64,000 nucleotides of DNA from Alphaproteobacteria bacterium (GTDB lineage: Bacteria; Pseudomonadota; Alphaproteobacteria; Bin95), in NCBI GenBank assembly GCA_964291285.2, contig OZ219786.1, forward strand, positions 704,001 to 768,000, in the 5' to 3' direction. Position numbers and translations under genes: made by a program. Positions 6,695 through 52,020 of the stretch are shown in pieces; within the stretch, counting starts at the first letter, position 1, and each line of letters starts with the position of its first letter. The notes beneath the pieces are model-generated. The model did not search any database. It had not been told where the DNA came from and saw only the letters and a program-made list of their open reading frames with translations.

Positions 6695-6795
6695 CTCCCT
6701 TCATCGAACAAATTCCGATGCGAAAGATTGACTGAAGCCATGATAATGCGATTAGTTTGCATTCTTAATTGGAACATGCAGAGCTTGAACACGAT

Positions 6796-7366
6796 CCGTT
6801 CAGGTTGACCCGGCCCCGTCCGCAAAGCCTCAATCATCGCCCCGGCCCCCCGATCGGGGGCGATGAAGGTGTATGGCAAAAAATTCCTGAAATTTATGCA
6901 ATGATTCCTTATTTGGGACTTGCACCTGAGAAAACAGTGATATGATGGGTCCGAAGTAAGCGGCATCCGGAGCCGCTTCCCGCTCGTGCCGGCCCGGTGC
7001 GGAACGACCCCGATTCAGCCGACAGGCGAAGTGCGTCCTGCGCCTGCCCCGCGCACGCGCAATCAGGCGCGCGAACCGCGCCGGCGCAAACGCCCGCCCC
7101 CGCCGGCACAGGCGCCCGCGCGGGATACGCGCGAATCAGGGTCCCGCCGCTGAGGCAACCGGGCGGCGGGAAGAACGGAACGAAGACGGATCGAAAGGAG
7201 AGACCCATGCCAAAGACGCGAAGCCGGGGACACCGGATGGAATACCCGGAGCCCATGCCCGAACAGGTCACGGGATATGCGCCGCGCGCATGCAGATCAT
7301 GACATCTCATGACATATCGCACGGGGTCCCGCCGGCCCGCATGACAAAACATGACATCCCATGACA
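6796..7366 (+). repeat. Dispersed element copy A (promoter, structured leader, RBS and short ORF, CATGACA repeats)
   Basis: Colinear similarity to 26551-27298 and, on the reverse strand, 41532-41950; 29-bp core GCAATCAGGCGCGCGAACCGCGCCGGCGC at 7059-7087 is identical in all three; CATGACA at 7298, 7308, 7340, 7350, 7360. Confidence 0.85.
6938..6946 (+). promoter_or_regulatory. Extended -10 promoter-like motif TGaTATGAT of element copy A
   Basis: TGn-TATGAT in an AT-rich tract; same motif at the equivalent position in copy B (26714-26722). Confidence 0.5.
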
Positions 7367-7438
7367 TGTTCGACCGGTGTTCCTGTCCTGGCGGCAGGCG
7401 CGGGGCCGGGATGCGGGGCTGTCGGAACGGGGCCCGCT

Positions 7439-8890
7439 CTAAAACACCGACGCCCAGCGCTTGAGCAGGGCTTGCTCCAGGTTCCGCGCCCGGTCGAGCC
7501 ACGCTTCGCCCTGCTCCCGCTCTTCTTCTCCCGGCTCGGGACCGAGCGCATCGAGGCGCCGGCGCTCGTCGAGGTCGCTGGTGAAGAGCGCGAAGGCCAG
7601 CCTTCGTCCGGACGCCGCGTGCAGATATCCGGCAAGGCCGCGCCCGTAATACATGCTGCCGGTCTTTGCCCAGACGCGGAACGCCAGCGCGGGGTCTTCC
7701 TCCCAGCCGGCCAGCGAGCCCTTCCAGCCGGAAATCGGCAGGAGCGATTCGAAGCTGCGGCCCCCGTAGCGCCGGCCGTCGGCATAGCGGAGCAGCGCCG
7801 CCATCCGCCGGGGCGAGGCGCGCGACCGGCTGCTGAGGCCGGAATGGCGGTCGAGCAGCCAGCCCGTCCCATCCCCGCCCAGGCGCCGGTCGAGCTCCGC
7901 CTGCAGGCGGGCGGCGGAGGCCTCCAGCGCCTCGGGCCGGCCGGCCAGCTTGCGGGAGGCTCCGAGGCCCATCAGTTCGGCAACGAGATTGTTGCTGTAT
8001 TGCAGGGAAAGGGCGGCGATATCGACCAGCCGCGGACCGCGATGGCGGGCGACGGGCCGGGCGTCCACCGGCGCGGTCCCGGCCTCCGGTCGGGTAAGCG
8101 CCAGCCCCTGCATGGCCGCAAGCTCGCGGAAGACGGAGGCCGTGAACCGGGACGGCCGGCGCACCGGCACCCATGTCCTTCCCGGCCTGCGGGCCGTCAC
8201 CCGCCAGCTCGGCCCGTCCGGCGTTTCGAGGCGGTGGAAGAGCGCCTCGCCCTTGCCCAGGGCAGCCCGCAGCGGCGCGAGATCGCCGGCCGGCAGGGCG
8301 AAGGCCGCAAGTCCGCCGCCCTGTTTCGCGCCCCACACCAGGCGCCGCCGGTTGAAGGACAGCGAGAGCGCCGAAACGCCCGGATTGTAGGTTGCGCGGT
8401 CGCTCTGCCCCGCGTCGATTTCGGCAGCGGGCAGAAGCAGGCCGTCGTCGTAGAAGAGGCCGGCCCGGGCGATGCCGGCTTCGGCGCCGGCCCGCGCGAG
8501 CGACATCAGGTCCTCCACGGCGAGCAGCGGGTCGCCGCCGCCCACCAGGTAGAGCCGGTCGCCGGAACGCCTGAGGCTCGTCTCGAAGCGGTGCTCGCCG
8601 CCGAGGATCTCGAGCGCTGCAACGGCGGTTGCAATCTTGGCGGTCGAGGCGGGCAGGAAGGCTTCGTCCGCCCGCCGCGACGCCAGCACGGCGCCGCCAT
8701 CGAGGTCGATCACGACATAGCCGGTGCCGGCGCCTTCGAGCCCGGCGGCGGCGATCAGCGCCTCGGCGGGCGGCGGCGGCGTTTCCGGCTGCGCGGCCGA
8801 GAGAGGCGGCAGCGCCAGCGCTGCGGAGAGCGCCAGCGCCGCCAGAGGCCGCCGGCCCGCTCTCCTCAACTCGGCAGGAAGCGTTCGCAA
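7439..8890 (-). CDS. dacB: D-alanyl-D-alanine carboxypeptidase/endopeptidase (PBP4, peptidase S13)
   Basis: PASTAK (SxxK), YSNN (SxN), AKTGS (KTG), signal peptide. Confidence 0.88.
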   Translation of the reverse strand: MRTLPAELRRAGRRPLAALALSAALALPPLSAAQPETPPPPAEALIAAAGLEGAGTGYVVIDLDGGAVLASRRADEAFLPASTAKIATAVAALEILGGEHRFETSLRRSGDRLYLVGGGDPLLAVEDLMSLARAGAEAGIARAGLFYDDGLLLPAAEIDAGQSDRATYNPGVSALSLSFNRRRLVWGAKQGGGLAAFALPAGDLAPLRAALGKGEALFHRLETPDGPSWRVTARRPGRTWVPVRRPSRFTASVFRELAAMQGLALTRPEAGTAPVDARPVARHRGPRLVDIAALSLQYSNNLVAELMGLGASRKLAGRPEALEASAARLQAELDRRLGGDGTGWLLDRHSGLSSRSRASPRRMAALLRYADGRRYGGRSFESLLPISGWKGSLAGWEEDPALAFRVWAKTGSMYYGRGLAGYLHAASGRRLAFALFTSDLDERRRLDALGPEPGEEEREQGEAWLDRARNLEQALLKRWASVF

Positions 8891-26540: not shown

Positions 26541-26629
26541 CACGTTGCATTAGAGCGGCACCCGTTCGGGTTGAAACGGCTTCGTCCGTAAAGCCTCAAG
26601 CATCACCCCGGACGGCACGTCAGCAGCCT

Positions 26630-26650
26630 GCCCCGGACTTGATCCGGGGC
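26630..26650. repeat. REP-like palindrome GCCCCGGA-CTTGA-TCCGGGGC
   Basis: Perfect 8-bp stem; resembles alphaproteobacterial CCGGACTTGATCCGG palindromic repeats. Confidence 0.6.
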
Positions 26651-26996
26651 GACGAGCCTTTCATGAAATTTAGGTAATATTTCTCTATTTCTGGTCTGAA
26701 TCAGGAAAACCCGTGATATGATGGGTTCGAGGTAAGCGGCATCCGGAGCCGCTTCCCGCCCGCGCCGGCCCGGTGCGGAACGACCCCGATTCAGCCGACA
26801 GGCGAGGCGCGTCCTGCGCCTGCCTCGCGCACGCGCAATCAGGCGCGCGAACCGCGCCGGCGCAATGGCGCGCCCGCGCCGGCACAGGCGCCCGCGCAGG
26901 ATACGCGCGAATAGGGGTCGCTCCGATGCCGGGACGGTGCGTCTGCCAACCCGCTCCGGTGTCCGCACCGGGCGCAAGCCGAACCAGGGAGCCGCC

Positions 26997-27296
26997 ATGC
27001 CTATCATCGACCCGACCGTCGCCCTCTCCACCCGCCAGGAAGCCTTCTGCCGCCACTGCACGGCTTCCGGCAATGCCGCAGACGCCGCAAGGCGCGCCGG
27101 CTATGCCGAACGCTCCGCAAGGCAGACAGGATGCGCGCTCCTGGAGCGGCCCTGGATCGTGGAGAACATCGAACAGCGCCGCCGGGACAGCCTCGACTGG
27201 CTCCAGAGGGCCGGACCCCTCAATGCGCCCCGGCAGCCGGACGGGCCCGACGGCGGGGATTTCACCCCGACCATGACAAAACATGACATTTCATGA
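26997..27296 (+). CDS. Terminase small subunit-like HTH protein (99 aa)
   Basis: LSTRQEAFCRHCTASGNAADAARRAGYAERSARQTGCALLERPWI resembles the TerS N-terminal pattern LTxKQxxF...NATxAAxxAGYS; RBS GGGAG. Confidence 0.7.
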   Translation: MPIIDPTVALSTRQEAFCRHCTASGNAADAARRAGYAERSARQTGCALLERPWIVENIEQRRRDSLDWLQRAGPLNAPRQPDGPDGGDFTPTMTKHDIS

Positions 27297-27332
27297 CACG
27301 GCGCTGGAGTGGGCCCCTTGGGTCGGACAGTT

Positions 27333-28127
27333 TCACGCGGCATTTTTGACAGGGTTGCGTTGTTGTTTCTCCTCGAAGCGGTTTGGGCTCAGATATCCGA
27401 GGGCGGAGTGCAGGCGTCTGTGGTTGTAGCTGTCGATGAAGCGTGGCAGTTGCCTTGCGACGTCTTCGGCGGTCTCGAAGGCCATGGGATAGACGCCTTC
27501 GACCTTCAGGGTTTTCATGAAGCTCTCCATCATGGCGTTGTCGTAGGGGTTGGCTCGTCGTCCCATGGAGCCGACCATCCCGTGTTTGTCGAGCCGGGTC
27601 CGGTAGGCATGGGCGGCGTATTGCGAGCCCCTGTCGGAGTGGTGGATGCAGCCGGGCTGAGGGCTTCGGTTCCCGATCGCCTTGTCGAGCGCCGCGAGCG
27701 TCAGGCGCGCGTCGATGCGTTGCCCGAGCGCGTAGCCGACAATGCGGCGCGACCAGGCGTCCATGACCGCCGCCAGATAGACGAAGCCGTCCAGGATGGC
27801 GATGTAGGTCAGGTCGGCGACCCAGAGCCGGTTCGGGCCCTCGACCTCGCAGTCCCGGGACCGGTCCGGGAAGACCGGCCCGTCGTGGCCGCTGTCCGTG
27901 GTGGCGACAAAGCGGCGCTTGCGCGGCGGCTGCAGGGCGTGTTCGCGCATCAGCCGCCTGACCTTCTTGTGGTTGACGGTCCGGCCCCGGTGGCGAAGTT
28001 CCGCCTGCATGCGCCGCCAGCCATAGGCCTCGAACTCGTCCTTGATCTCGTGCATCGCCTCGACCAGGGCGGTGTCGTCGACCGGGCTCTGCGGCTCGCG
28101 GTAACAGGTGGAGCGCGCGATCCCCAT
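27333..28127 (-). CDS. IS3 transposase OrfB (integrase core)
   Basis: WVADLTY, HHSDRGSQY, DNAMMESF, RRLHSALGY; TGATG overlap with orfA. Confidence 0.9.
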   Translation of the reverse strand: MGIARSTCYREPQSPVDDTALVEAMHEIKDEFEAYGWRRMQAELRHRGRTVNHKKVRRLMREHALQPPRKRRFVATTDSGHDGPVFPDRSRDCEVEGPNRLWVADLTYIAILDGFVYLAAVMDAWSRRIVGYALGQRIDARLTLAALDKAIGNRSPQPGCIHHSDRGSQYAAHAYRTRLDKHGMVGSMGRRANPYDNAMMESFMKTLKVEGVYPMAFETAEDVARQLPRFIDSYNHRRLHSALGYLSPNRFEEKQQRNPVKNAA

Positions 28128-28477
28128 CAGTCGGCATCCTTCGGCAACGGAGAGGCCTCGGGGCCGGCGATCACGGACATGGGCGCGCGCCTCGACCGCC
28201 GTCCTTGCCGCAAAGCCCCCTTTAGGAACTCCAGCTCCGCGGCCTGCCGGCCGACCAGCCGTTCGAGCGTCGCGATCCGGGCCTCATACGCCCGGAGCGT
28301 GTCAGCCGCCTCGGCCTCCTCATCGAAGGCGCCGGCCTCGTATTTCTCCAGCCACAGCCGGATCAGGGTGCGAGACAGGTCATGACGGCGGGCCAGACCG
28401 TAAAACGTCTCGCCTGCCAGATACTCCTCAACGACCTGGCGCTTGAAGGCCATGCTGTGCGTGCGGTGCTTCCTCAT
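28127..28477 (-). CDS. IS3 transposase OrfA (HTH)
   Basis: HSMAFKRQVV...LARRHDLSRTLIRLW, LERLVGRQAAELEFLK. Confidence 0.88.
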   Translation of the reverse strand: MRKHRTHSMAFKRQVVEEYLAGETFYGLARRHDLSRTLIRLWLEKYEAGAFDEEAEAADTLRAYEARIATLERLVGRQAAELEFLKGALRQGRRSRRAPMSVIAGPEASPLPKDAD

Positions 28478-28705
28478 CGGCGTCGATCCTTCCAATGACC
28501 GCGCACCTGTCAATTTCCTACAACAAAACTGTCCGAGACCAGGGGCCCACTCCACGCGAGAGGGCGCCGCCACTCCTCTCTTCTCCCGCCTGCAGGGGAA
28601 GCCGCGGACGGGGGAACGGGAGTGCATGCAATCCGCGTCCGGGGGTGGTAAACCGTCCGCCTCCGGTTTTCCTGCACACCCGATGCCCGTTTGAAGGACG
28701 ACGAC

Positions 28706-41531: not shown

Positions 41532-41950
41532 TGTCATGAAATGTCATGTTTTGTCATGAGGCCCTCCGGAAATGTCATGTTTTGTCGTGGTCCGGGTCGA
41601 AGCCCGGGCCGTTGGCGCCGCTTCGAGGAGTCGTTCGTCGGGGCATTTGCGCCTCCTTCCATTCGATGGTTTCCGCCGCCCGCTGTTGCGGGGCGGCGAC
41701 CCTTTTTCGCGCGTAACGCGCGCGGGCCGGCGCGCGTCGGCGCCGGCGCGGTTCGCGCGCCTGATTGCCCGCGTGCGCCCGCATGCGCGAGGCAGTCGCC
41801 GGACGCACCCCTCCCGCCTGCTCCCCTGGGGGCTTTTTTCGCGCCGCCGCGACCCGAAGCGGCCTCCGGACAACCGCTTCCTCCCGCTCCACCTAATGGG
41901 CGGCGGCGCGGATTTCAACCCCTGTAATGGAATTTTTTCAGAAATTGTGA
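41532..41950 (-). repeat. Dispersed element copy C (diverged, reverse strand)
   Basis: Core at 41740-41768; AAGCGG..CCGCTT hairpin; GAAGGAGG RBS and ATGCC; TGTCATG at 41532, 41542, 41552, 41573 and variant TGTCGTG at 41583. Confidence 0.8.
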
Positions 41951-42044
41951 ACAAGGCCTGCCCTTCCCGCCTCTTGACCGGCCGGCCCGTCCGGCGCAGA
42001 GAATTGCCGGCAGCACCGCCGAAGGAACCGACCCGGCCCGGCCG

Positions 42045-51782: not shown

Positions 51783-51927
51783 CCGAACCCGATCTCCGAA
51801 TCTCTCCGGGCCGGCGCTGCCGCGCCCGCGCCGCTTCCTCATGGGCGTCCATCCTTCCCGTACCCGCGCTCCTGTCAATTCTTCTCGACCCGGCTGTCCG
51901 AACCCGGGGGCCCGCTCCAGCCAACGC

Positions 51928-51948
51928 CGGGACCCTGATTCGCGCGTA
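51928..51948 (-). repeat. Fragment D of the dispersed element
   Basis: Reverse complement TACGCGCGAATCAGGGTCCCG is identical to 7126-7146. Confidence 0.6.
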
Positions 51949-52020
51949 ACCTGCGCGCGCCTTCCGCCGGGAGTCGGGGAGGCGTAGGCTCGGTCCCGGC
52001 GCGATTCGGAGAGGAAACCG

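Follow-up and report, generated by a model that had tools for sequence, protein, structure and literature searches.

This genome carries a family of about 100 dispersed cassettes, restricted to one genus of uncultured marine bacteria and built as transcription units that share a single order of parts: an AT-rich promoter-like tract, a 5′ hairpin, an invariant 29-nt core, a TACGCGCGAA motif, a ribosome-binding site (RBS) with an open reading frame, and CATGACA repeats at a 10-bp period. Most of the loci are old and shared between species. Within a genome, gene conversion keeps the transcribed part of the copies similar to one another, and the same recombination, acting between leader and array, both of which are conserved, swaps the cargo, removes it or, now and then, rearranges the chromosome. 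The family does not appear to match any repeat or mobile element described so far, and no published account of it was found in the part of the literature that is open to full-text searching.

Cassette anatomy in the window and across the genome

Three copies (A, B and C) are present in the window, by which we mean the whole 64-kb stretch of DNA that was analysed, and their features and those of the neighbouring elements are as follows.

6780..6846 (+), low-copy AGAGC..CCGTTC module upstream of copy A, with an inverted partner at ~7417-7445
6882..6946 (+), copy A left end and promoter-like tract, an AT-rich block as read from the sequence
6920-6925 (+), copy A −35-like TTGCAC, with a 15-nt spacer to the −10
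6941-6946 (+), copy A TGn-extended −10 TATGAT, not flagged by a strict sigma-70 scan
6958..6978 (+), copy A 5′-proximal hairpin AAGCGGC / GCCGCTT, just 3′ of the −10 box
7059..7087 (+), copy A invariant 29-nt core with hairpin GGCGCG-CGAAC-CGCGCC
7126..7135 (+), copy A TACGCGCGAA motif, elsewhere in the family the fixed insertion point of an IS4-like element
7195-7203 (+), copy A RBS
7207..7302 (+), copy A ORF of 31 aa ('type 3 peptide' cargo class), ending with a stop codon within the first CATGACA pair
7298..7366 (+), copy A CATGACA array and right end, 10-bp period: units at 7298 and 7308, a short hairpin spacer, then units at 7340, 7350 and 7360
26657..26996 (+), copy B promoter-like tract through leader to start codon (TATGAT 26717-26722, hairpin 26734-26754, core 26835-26863)
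26997..27296 (+), copy B 99-aa remnant of a 329-aa terminase-small-subunit-like gene, N-terminal DNA-binding domain only
27272..27298 (+), copy B array of three CATGACA units, 10-bp period, forming the right end
27305..28554 (−), IS3-family element 6 nt past the array of B, with inverted repeats beginning TGGAGTGGGCCCC and CGC on both flanks
41532..41954 (−), copy C whole, with TTGTTC left end at 41954-41949 and core at 41768-41740
41646-41575 (−), copy C 23-aa ORF, unclassified cargo
41579-41532 (−), copy C array of one plus three CATGACA units
51917..51962 (−), leader remnant of 46 nt (model positions 227-274; nhmmer E 6.2e-6)

The part order, positions, hairpin, motif, ORFs and arrays that the initial annotation had given for the three copies were all recovered, including the 53-nt distance from TGAAATTTA to TATGAT in both A (6888, 6941) and B (26664, 26717), and a core without differences between A, B and C; the last CATGACA unit closes the copies at 7366, 27298 and 41532, respectively. 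The fragment reported near 51928-51948 on the minus strand is a genuine leader remnant, and in the sister species (genome G007) the flank syntenic to ~52.1-53.2 kb of the window adjoins a leader-bearing cassette with arrays (locus L063). Two earlier readings are revised. The initial 85-100 nt that had been counted into A (6796-6881) and B (26551-26656) are a distinct repeat outside the cassette, the AGAGC..CCGTTC module, and because only two of its 12 nhmmer matches genome-wide adjoin cassettes we rejected it as the true cassette terminus (a loose-pattern search returned 24 matches, mostly chance). An inverted pair of this module, at about 6780 and 7440, brackets copy A and belongs to that other repeat, not to the cassette as a terminal inverted repeat. 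The second revision concerns the 99-aa ORF of copy B, which had been read as independent cargo and is instead a deletion remnant of the 329-aa gene, hereafter the master gene.

The expectation of many copies genome-wide was borne out, the leader having 109 nhmmer matches, 83 of them near-full, in the 6.1-Mb genome. There are 113 clusters of CATGACA arrays, 102 of which have a same-strand leader no more than 3.5 kb upstream, and 72 of the 83 near-full copies have an array no more than 1.5 kb downstream, a co-occurrence far beyond chance. The copies are dispersed, with unique flanks, and the units are 0.33-1.4 kb long. The leader is GC-rich, spans ~270 nt and begins with the hairpin; the right end consists of two to three or more CATGACA units, whose 10-bp period brings a TGA stop into all three frames. 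Comparison of near-identical pairs places the right boundary of the family 0-6 nt past the last CATGACA, and nine master copies, 86-99% identical to one another within the unit, drop to 37% identity directly after the array; their promoter tracts are 60% identical, and the DNA farther upstream is 36% identical.

The master form, of which ten intact copies are present in this genome, is ~1.35 kb long, and its 329-aa product has a DNA-binding domain of the small-terminase type. Most of the remaining copies either arose by deletion or contain a small ORF of one of two further types. The cargo of the 83 near-full copies falls into three recurrent types (type 3 accounting for 19, including A) plus 29 that are unclassified. 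The type 2 cargo matches no Pfam family. At least seven copies have a second, promoterless module of RBS, 16-aa ORF and array directly after the first array, and a large number of copies have decayed or are interrupted by insertion sequences. The copies are mosaics, in that ORFs 97% identical can carry different promoter and hairpin types; together with the cargo types, and with content that differs between genomes at one syntenic site (described below), this fits the earlier proposal of expression units with swappable cargo. A cargo catalogue had also been suggested as a route to an autonomous copy; no integrase gene is present beside any copy examined, and there is no transposase among the cargo ORFs of the 83 copies, the enzyme-like ORFs being secondary IS insertions or, in one case, a methyltransferase.

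The earlier description of a promoter holds insofar as an AT-rich tract with TATGAT is present, with a family consensus of TTGTTC..GAAATAATTC..CTTGAC..TGnTAtgAT in the 83-copy alignment; promoter activity itself we infer from this resemblance, the strict sigma-70 scan flagging seven of the 83 copies, and a relaxed scan (spacers of 14-18 nt) flagging 31 and leaving 52 without a site, with a usual spacer of 15 nt. Across 59 leaders from seven genomes the 29-nt core is nearly invariant, and minimum-free-energy folds of each of the 83 copies show a 5′-proximal hairpin that recurs across subfamilies with differing stem sequences. RNAalifold applied to the 59 leaders missed this evident hairpin because of alignment gaps (the covariation term is only −0.26, and one of 26 pairs is changed on both sides), and a separate MAFFT alignment gave a weak signal too. 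The leader matched no known RNA family when checked against Rfam, with no match at gathering score in the whole window and none at E ≤ 1 for copy B.

In one RNA library, contigs overlap parts of copy A (7052-7148 and 7288-7353) with a similarity of 90-95%, which does not show transcription of this copy. Four read runs consist of contigs, and depth ratios taken from them are not copy numbers. Contig ends fall at cassette A, for example at 7014 and 7352, so that the contigs neither bridge nor skip the cassette, and the joints within read-run contigs have short sides (18-69 letters) derived from other copies.

Shared loci, concerted evolution and turnover

Comparison with the sister species indicates that most of the loci are old. 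About 18 of the 29 distinct loci in G007 have a flank that lies no more than 2 kb from a cassette in the present genome (G000); this flank is single-copy in 17 and has two matches for locus L047. At three G007 loci, the two flanks adjoin cassettes at two different G000 loci. The DNA of the master gene is on average 94% identical within G000 (45 pairs) and 97% within G007 (21 pairs), and 78% between the two (70 pairs); in three syntenic pairs the copies are 78-79% identical and their flanks 88-95%. A tree of the master copies splits by genome with support of 100/100. That copies group by genome though their loci are shared between species points to concerted evolution. The measurement covers two genomes and a single copy from another, and the formal alternative is that cassettes inserted repeatedly at the same loci.

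At one syntenic site with identical junctions, five genomes are empty, two contain only the RBS and array (56-76 bp), one has a reverse-strand nuclease gene and an array, and one has a full cassette. The array is the most persistent part, and the DNA on its 5′ side turns over. The nuclease beside the array, in genome G015 (Exo_endo_phos, E 1.1e-6), was considered as a mobilising enzyme and rejected: it occurs in four of 17 genomes, G000 not among them, and none of its eight other loci has an array. Within this genome we found no paralogous empty sites for the 69 copies tested with both flanks.

The cassettes are also targets for other elements, with at least three IS families inserting at fixed cassette positions. 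Every one of the nine IS3-like elements in the genome has a cassette array at a distance of 32-434 bp, five of 13 copies of an IS110-like element occupy one fixed position in the leader, and 16 of 49 copies of an IS4-like element are in cassettes, with a fixed insertion point at the TACGCGCGAA motif.

The terminase-like protein and alternative explanations

The first ~110 residues of the 329-aa protein form a small-terminase-like helix-turn-helix followed by a helical hairpin, and the remaining part is acidic and mostly disordered. The full protein was searched with PF03592, against the PDB and by fold. Terminase_2 (PF03592) has 12 matches in the genome (E 3.8e-13 to 2.7e-6), every one of them inside a cassette and spanning only profile positions 2-64/75 of 141; it is the only family matched by the form in copy B, where the 99-aa ORF scores E 1.3e-9 over residues 11-62 and aligns to the full gene over residues 1-65. 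A sequence search of the PDB matched residues 9-59/79 to 4zc3, 2cmp and 3zqp, with E about 0.01. An AlphaFold model has pLDDT of about 90 at residues 10-60 and 65-76 for the helices at 69-106; with Foldseek it gives no match at E ≤ 0.001, and the best ten rows are all small terminases, 4zc3 aligning with TM 0.85 over 56 columns and 3zqq over 133 columns. Taken together, the Pfam, PDB and Foldseek results identify the helix-turn-helix DNA-binding domain of a small terminase in this protein.

The gene is under purifying selection, with dN/dS of 0.25 within G000, 0.15 within G007 and 0.26 between them, and none of the 18 full copies is disrupted in the part compared, the first ~270 codons (about 815 nt). 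Of the 16 other genomes in the genus, 13 carry the cassette and 12 have the protein; the protein was not found in G001, G003 or G013, in which the leader is missing or has one weak match, and seven of the eight complete-looking leader-bearing genomes (1-5 contigs) have several full-length, stop-free matches each. G008, which is complete in one contig, has 23 leader matches and no protein match, and cassette persistence therefore does not need the protein. As the CATGACA heptamer is invariant in every genome seen, there is no covariation that could be exploited for the predicted binding of the protein.

The explanation that we favour, with about an even chance of being right, is that the family consists of self-contained transcription-unit cassettes homogenised by gene conversion, in which the terminase-like protein would bind the arrays and start recombination. 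An oligomer of the protein may bind the phased CATGACA units in the way that small terminases recognise the phased repeats at pac sites, thereby marking every cassette end as a possible start of recombination, and new loci would arise rarely. Marking of this kind would account for three observations: that the right boundary is sharp, that DNA is inserted and lost 5′ of the arrays, and that insertion sequences are attracted. The fall in identity toward either end of the unit is the pattern of plain RecA-mediated conversion, and thus requires no special machinery. A bolder version of this explanation, which we regard as rather unlikely, is that the cassettes are a new class of dispersed, integrase-less element in which a domesticated small-terminase protein marks arrays as landing pads and recombination starts, modules being inserted, exchanged and copied from locus to locus on their 5′ side; if true, concerted evolution across the whole genome would follow, and the cassettes would provide insertion sequences with a safe haven.

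The initial annotation had raised the possibility of a mobile cassette; evidence for active transposition is weak, given the loci common to both species and a single insertion that could be polarised as derived. It is conceivable, if unlikely, that the family is a non-autonomous DNA transposon moved by a transposase that is encoded elsewhere and recognises the TGTTC left tip and the CATGACA right end (5′-TGT...ACA-3′ tips), one of the two ends having multiple binding sites like those of Tn7 or Mu. The right end is sharp, the TTGTTC left end is conserved, and in the main subfamily the left TGTTCATGAAAT resembles by eye the reverse complement of the right end TGTCATGAAAT; family-wide, however, the 83-copy left-end alignment and a listing of right ends reveal a likeness of only 4-5 nt (TGTTC / GACA) and no terminal inverted repeat. 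The IS3-family element, always beside arrays, is a candidate mobiliser, but it has its own, different inverted repeats and sits outside the cassette. Among the 25 of 83 copies whose ends could be placed by pattern, there is no recurrent target duplication of 3-6 nt at offsets of 0-3. The only insertion that can be polarised as derived is at a site empty in 11 of 17 genomes and has flank alignments that overlap by 8 nt, but only five of the eight match between sides, and the 716-bp insert is longer than its cassette, which is surrounded by about 130 bp and about 260 bp of additional sequence. Movement of whole units also fits poorly with a promoter tract that is 60% alike when genes are 93-99% alike, and with the 18 of 29 loci common to both species. 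As noted earlier for the three copies, no transposase, family-wide inverted repeat or target duplication was found, the last among the copies with placeable ends, and the family does not fit a MITE or IS.

We give a similarly small chance to a host regulatory family, in which the leader would be a functional RNA or a cis-regulatory 5′ UTR and the phased heptamers operators of a host response regulator, the copies being kept because they benefit the host and not as selfish DNA. The invariant core, the 5′ hairpins kept with different stem sequences, the conservation of loci between species and the retention of leaders without the protein in G008 would all be accounted for; read on the other strand the heptamers give TGTCAT at a 10-bp period, which resembles Pho boxes, but the Pho-box period is 11 bp. 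Against a regulatory role, Rfam yields no match even at E ≤ 1 for copy B, the copies are not oriented in any consistent way relative to the genes beside them (72 copies, the four possible arrangements occurring 24/20/15/13 times, with a home-made GC3 gene caller) and no replication-strand bias (40 of 83 copies, p 0.83), and many are decayed or IS-split.

Homogenisation could instead be RNA-mediated, a resident reverse transcriptase copying the cassette transcript into cDNA that converts other copies. Similarity would then be maintained in the transcribed region alone, as far as a fixed 3′ end. The homogenised tract does start near the predicted transcript start and end sharply at the array (60% in the promoter, 86-99% downstream), and the genome has four RVT_1 matches above cut-off. 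We nevertheless think this quite improbable: no reverse transcriptase is linked to any cassette, near-identical pairs differ in their left break-points, which fall anywhere between the left end of the unit and a position about 25 nt into the transcript, identity at the right end declines too (from 0.99 to 0.86), as expected for conversion at the DNA level, and no poly-A or other priming feature was seen. Nor does the family fit a retroelement such as a retron, a group II intron or a non-LTR-like element: the RVT_1 matches lie away from the cassettes, and 83 of the 109 leader matches include the promoter tract.

Highly improbable is that protein and array are dispersed pac sites from which a phage or gene-transfer-agent head packages chromosomal DNA. 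In favour are the fold near the N terminus, which is that of a small terminase, the phased direct repeats next to the gene, as at the pac sites of SPP1-type phages, and a weak genomic match to a capsid family (28.9 bits). Against it, only the DNA-binding half of the terminase profile is matched, no large-terminase partner was found (PF03354, PF03237 and PF04466 have no match each, in a genome rated 100% complete), and blastn of copy B found no match in a phage collection. A plasmid collection gave no match to copy B either.

Comparison with known systems

If the explanation favoured here is correct, about a hundred copies of a transcription unit are spread or kept uniform without a known mobility enzyme, a phage packaging-recognition protein serves a non-packaging job, and a further kind of repeat stands in bacteria beside IS, MITE, REP and integron cassettes. 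The roughly one hundred breaks per genome in short-read assemblies of this group would then be explained as well. The family offers a natural system for the study of gene conversion between dispersed repeats and of cargo exchange at conserved ends, and one for site-specific targeting by at least three IS families, including an IS110-type element with a fixed leader target. In metagenomes, leader and array serve as specific markers of the genus.

Integron cassettes with attC sites, such as those of the Vibrio cholerae superintegron, share with the present family short one-ORF units with a conserved repeat end and variable cargo, tandem modules each closed by a repeat, and content 5′ of the repeat that varies between genomes at one site. 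They differ in being gathered on one platform, compared with about 100 dispersed loci here, and each unit here has its own promoter-like tract and long leader; the attC site is an imperfect palindrome, whereas the end here consists of direct heptamers with a 10-bp period and no integrase is present beside the cassettes examined.

Correia elements are 100-160 bp long, with 26-nt terminal inverted repeats, a TA duplication and no ORF. Like these and the NIMEs and dRS3 of Neisseria, the cassettes are intergenic, carry promoter elements and number about a hundred or more, and in Neisseria too the repeats are targets of specific insertion sequences and phages and are mosaics exchanged by recombination. 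The units described here are longer, at 0.33-1.4 kb, have neither the 26-nt inverted repeats nor the TA duplication of Correia elements, nor any family-wide inverted repeat or duplication, and contain a structured leader and a gene under purifying selection. REPs are palindromes of 20-40 nt mobilised by an HUH transposase (RAYT), and with the IS3-family elements IS1397 and ISKpn1 the REP/BIME repeats provide a parallel for a high-copy intergenic repeat that is a specific IS landing site; the cassette is not a short palindrome, being ten to thirty times longer, transcribed-looking and coding.

SPP1-type phages have pac sites with phased direct repeats beside the small-terminase gene, and the cassette protein resembles the small terminase G1P of SPP1/SF6-type pac phages (4zc3, 2cmp, 3zqq) in its N-terminal helix-turn-helix (39-40% identity, 55-56 columns, TM 0.85), in the helical hairpin that follows and in the phased repeats beside its gene. 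Unlike G1P, it matches only the N-terminal part of the profile, has no large-terminase partner among the three Pfam families searched, and has a long, acidic C-terminal half modelled at low confidence.

Layout and extent of the cassette family

The cassette family is real and large. Three copies lie in the window, with limits as first annotated:

6796-7366, plus strand: copy A
26551-27298, plus strand: copy B
41532-41950, minus strand: copy C

Reading and alignment of these places bear out the initial annotation nearly letter for letter. In A as in B, TATGAT lies 53 nt after the start of TGAAATTTA, and both also carry the hairpin AAGCGGC..GCCGCTT; a 29-nt core is the same in all three copies, the TACGCGCGAA motif is present, and an RBS is followed by an ORF beginning ATGCC (31, 99 and 23 aa in A, B and C respectively), each copy being closed by CATGACA units with a 10-bp period. 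The cargo of B, described as TerS-like, matches Pfam Terminase_2 (E 1.3e-9, residues 11-62). The starts assigned to A (6796-6881) and B (26551-26656) are to be taken out of the cassette, as they belong to a different repeat, an AGAGCGG..CCCGTTCGG.. module with 12 nhmmer hits that lies just upstream of both copies (6780-6846 and 26548-26656). An inverted copy downstream of A (∼7417-7445) completes a pair that brackets A, and the separate repeat is associated with cassettes beyond chance expectation. Elsewhere in the window, a leader remnant at 51917-51962 corresponds to a syntenic locus of the sister species G007 (L063) that still has a leader-bearing cassette and arrays; this remnant shows in-place decay of a cassette.

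The surrounding genome (G000; 6.13 Mb, five contigs, 68% G+C) holds many copies, as had been predicted: iterated nhmmer searches with the leader of B, the ∼270-nt GC-rich stretch before the ORF, gave 98 and then 109 hits, 83 of them near-full. A CATGACA array follows within 1.5 kb in 72 of these 83, most of the other 11 being split by insertion sequences and one having a larger cargo; conversely, 102 of the 113 CATGACA-N3-CATGACA clusters have a same-strand leader no more than 3.5 kb upstream. It follows that a single unit has the leader at one end and the array at the other. The 10-bp period means that three CATGACA units present TGA in every reading frame, and all cargo ORFs terminate within the array (ending, for example, in ..HDKT or ..MTKHDIS). 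Cassettes number 14.5-16 per Mb on each of the three large contigs, against 8.8 on C4 and 4.5 on C5, with no rule of orientation toward neighbouring genes (24/20/15/13 among 72 copies, genes being called with a home-made tool) and no replication-strand bias (40 of 83 copies).

The 83-copy consensus opens on the left with a conserved TTGTTC; after it come GAAATAATTC, a -35-like CTTGAC/TTGCAT and a TGn-extended TATGAT, and there is no conservation upstream of TTGTTC. From its sequence this tract is a putative promoter, usually with a 15-nt spacer; a strict sigma-70 scan finds a site in seven of the 83 copies and none at A, and a scan allowing 14-18-nt spacers finds one in 31, of which 25 have the 15-nt spacer and 23 an extended -10. 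When the 83 copies are folded singly, a strong hairpin near the predicted transcript start recurs across subfamilies with differing stem sequences, and a second leader hairpin is often present. The alignment-based leader consensus is weak (both sides change in one of 26 pairs; covariation term -0.26), and Rfam gave no match.

Cargo and the terminase-like protein

Cargo classes in the 83 near-full copies of G000
Full 329-aa gene: 10
Remnants of the 329-aa gene: 10 (example, B)
Second acidic protein, 190-234 aa, no Pfam match: 4
Remnants of the second acidic protein: 11
31-48-aa peptide type: 19 (example, A)
Unclassified, IS-split copies included: 29 (example, C)

The intact master gene encodes ∼329-336 aa in its ten copies (up to 347 aa from an upstream start). 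All 18 master-gene sequences are open across the first ∼270 codons compared, and dN/dS is 0.15-0.26. In at least seven copies a second, promoterless module (RBS, a 16-aa ORF MPCERPERRPAPHDKT, and an array) directly follows the first array, as at G000 C1:227595 (+481..+680); its ∼130-nt GC-rich stretch resembles the 3′ half of the leader, giving tandem modules each closed by an array. At C3:1311907-1316300 a leader precedes a stretch of short tandem repeats (GGCGACGCAGC-like), a 401-aa methyltransferase-like gene with a DPPF motif and other genes, the array being 4.4 kb off; this may be a large-cargo cassette or a disrupted one.

All 12 Terminase_2 matches of G000 sit within cassettes and cover only profile positions 2 to 64 or 75 of 141. 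Sequence matches in the PDB are to SF6/SPP1-type small terminases (residues 9 to 59 or 79, E ∼0.01). The AlphaFold model of the 329-aa protein, built with 23 homologues, has a mean pLDDT of 59, reaching ∼90 at residues 10-60, moderate for the helices at 69-106, and below 50 in the long stretches 113-151, 218-252 and 288-329. We infer that the protein binds the array.

Copy identity, locus history and insertion sequences

DNA identity over the first ∼815 nt of the master gene
Within G000: 86-99.9%, mean 94% (45 pairs)
Within G007: 96-100% (21 pairs)
G000 versus G007: 75-80% (70 pairs)
Syntenic G000/G007 pairs: 78-79% (three pairs)

Mean pairwise identity along the unit, nine copies
Upstream of unit: 36%
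Promoter tract: 60%
Surroundings of the start and 5′ hairpin: 86%
Leader: 90-94%
Gene: 89-99%
Array region: 86%
Beyond array: 39%

Syntenic genes are no closer than non-syntenic ones, while their flanks are 88-95% identical, and the master-gene tree splits by genome with support of 100/100. Near-identical pairs have a right limit 0-6 nt past the last CATGACA and a variable left limit, and promoter and hairpin types can differ between copies whose genes are 97% identical. Gene conversion among the dispersed copies is our reading of this pattern of identities, and it would also be the source of the mosaics. That the copies were instead homogenised through an RNA or cDNA route seems quite improbable; the four RVT_1 matches in G000 (C5:185547, C1:86370, C4:287134 and C2:386469), two of which are identical 569-aa frames, adjoin no cassette.

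We compared the flanks of 30 loci (29 distinct) of the complete G007 genome with G000. In 18 of the 29 a flank lies within 2 kb of a G000 cassette, being single-copy in 17 and having two hits for one locus (L047); in three of the 18 the two flanks adjoin cassettes at two different G000 loci, indicating rearrangement between copies. Three of the 29 loci are empty in G000. One empty site is contiguous in 11 of 17 genomes and filled in G007, and the match of another genome, G014, also breaks off there, within a contig; the G007 state is therefore a derived insertion (L064). It comprises 716 bp, begins with an AGAGCGG module similar to that beside A and B, surrounds the cassette with ∼130 bp and ∼260 bp of other DNA, and has an imperfect 8-nt overlap of the flank alignments. 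The second site has the same junctions in all genomes:

Empty: G000, G006, G014, G012, G011
RBS-like stretch and array only, 56-76 bp: G002, G016
Exo_endo_phos gene (reverse strand) and array: G015
Full cassette with decayed array: G007

The nuclease gene (276 aa; L093 191-1021, equal to G015 C1:1824476-1825303) has the left junction on one side and a solo CATGACA array on the other; it is sporadic (4 of 17 genomes) and elsewhere not array-linked. We found no paralogous empty sites within G000, and the 25 copies with ends placeable by a pattern showed no target duplication. Of the parts of the unit, it is the array that persists best.

Insertion sequences also lie at or near cassettes. An IS3-family element at window 27305-28554 (orfA/orfB on the minus strand) lies 6 nt past the array of B, with inverted repeats starting TGGAGTGGGCCCC and CGC at both flanks. 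All nine copies in the genome, which occur in both orientations, have a cassette array at a distance of 32-434 bp, and the outer edge of the array therefore appears to be its target. An IS110-family element (DEDD-type transposase, ∼1.06 kb) has five of its 13 copies at one identical leader position (G000 C1:640044-641412, C1:858811, C2:876696, C2:1145070 and C3:1276383), as though the leader offered it a sequence-specific target. A third element is IS4-like, with a 600-aa transposase, 49 copies and the terminal repeat TAGCCCGACTTCCGCAACTCGG; 16 of its copies are within 700 bp of cassette parts, and at least seven are inserted directly after TACGCGCGAAT of the leader in either orientation (for example C1:257685, C3:941058, C3:195928, C4:199588, C2:676357, C3:686086 and C3:831410).

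Distribution and relation to known elements

Among the 16 other genomes of the genus, 13 have 23-28 leader matches each, G013 has a single weak one, and none occurs in G001 or G003. Beyond the genus, only two of 14 genomes match at all, each once or twice and weakly. A search for the protein is positive in 12 of the 16 and finds nothing in G001, G003, G013 or G008, the last (complete, one contig) being the sole leader-bearing genome among those searched to lack it, with 23 leader matches. Public collections hold at least 310 relatives of the protein, the best 120 being 266-396 aa and at least 67% identical; two, from Alphaproteobacteria bins, bear the automatic name 'terminase small subunit'.

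Plasmid and phage collections gave no DNA match. In G000 the families PF03354, PF03237 and PF04466 detected no large terminase, and one weak phage-capsid-family match (C2:88158-88493) lies away from cassettes. No Foldseek row reaches E ≤0.001; the ten best are small terminases only (4zc3, TM 0.85; 3zqq, 133 columns). Of the element classes tested, the family matches neither MITEs, insertion sequences, integron cassettes, Correia elements nor retroelements. The best-supported reading is of an old, genus-wide family of self-contained gene cassettes with a terminase-derived DNA-binding protein and a phased array at their heart; on this reading, recombination among the copies keeps them alike and reshuffles them.
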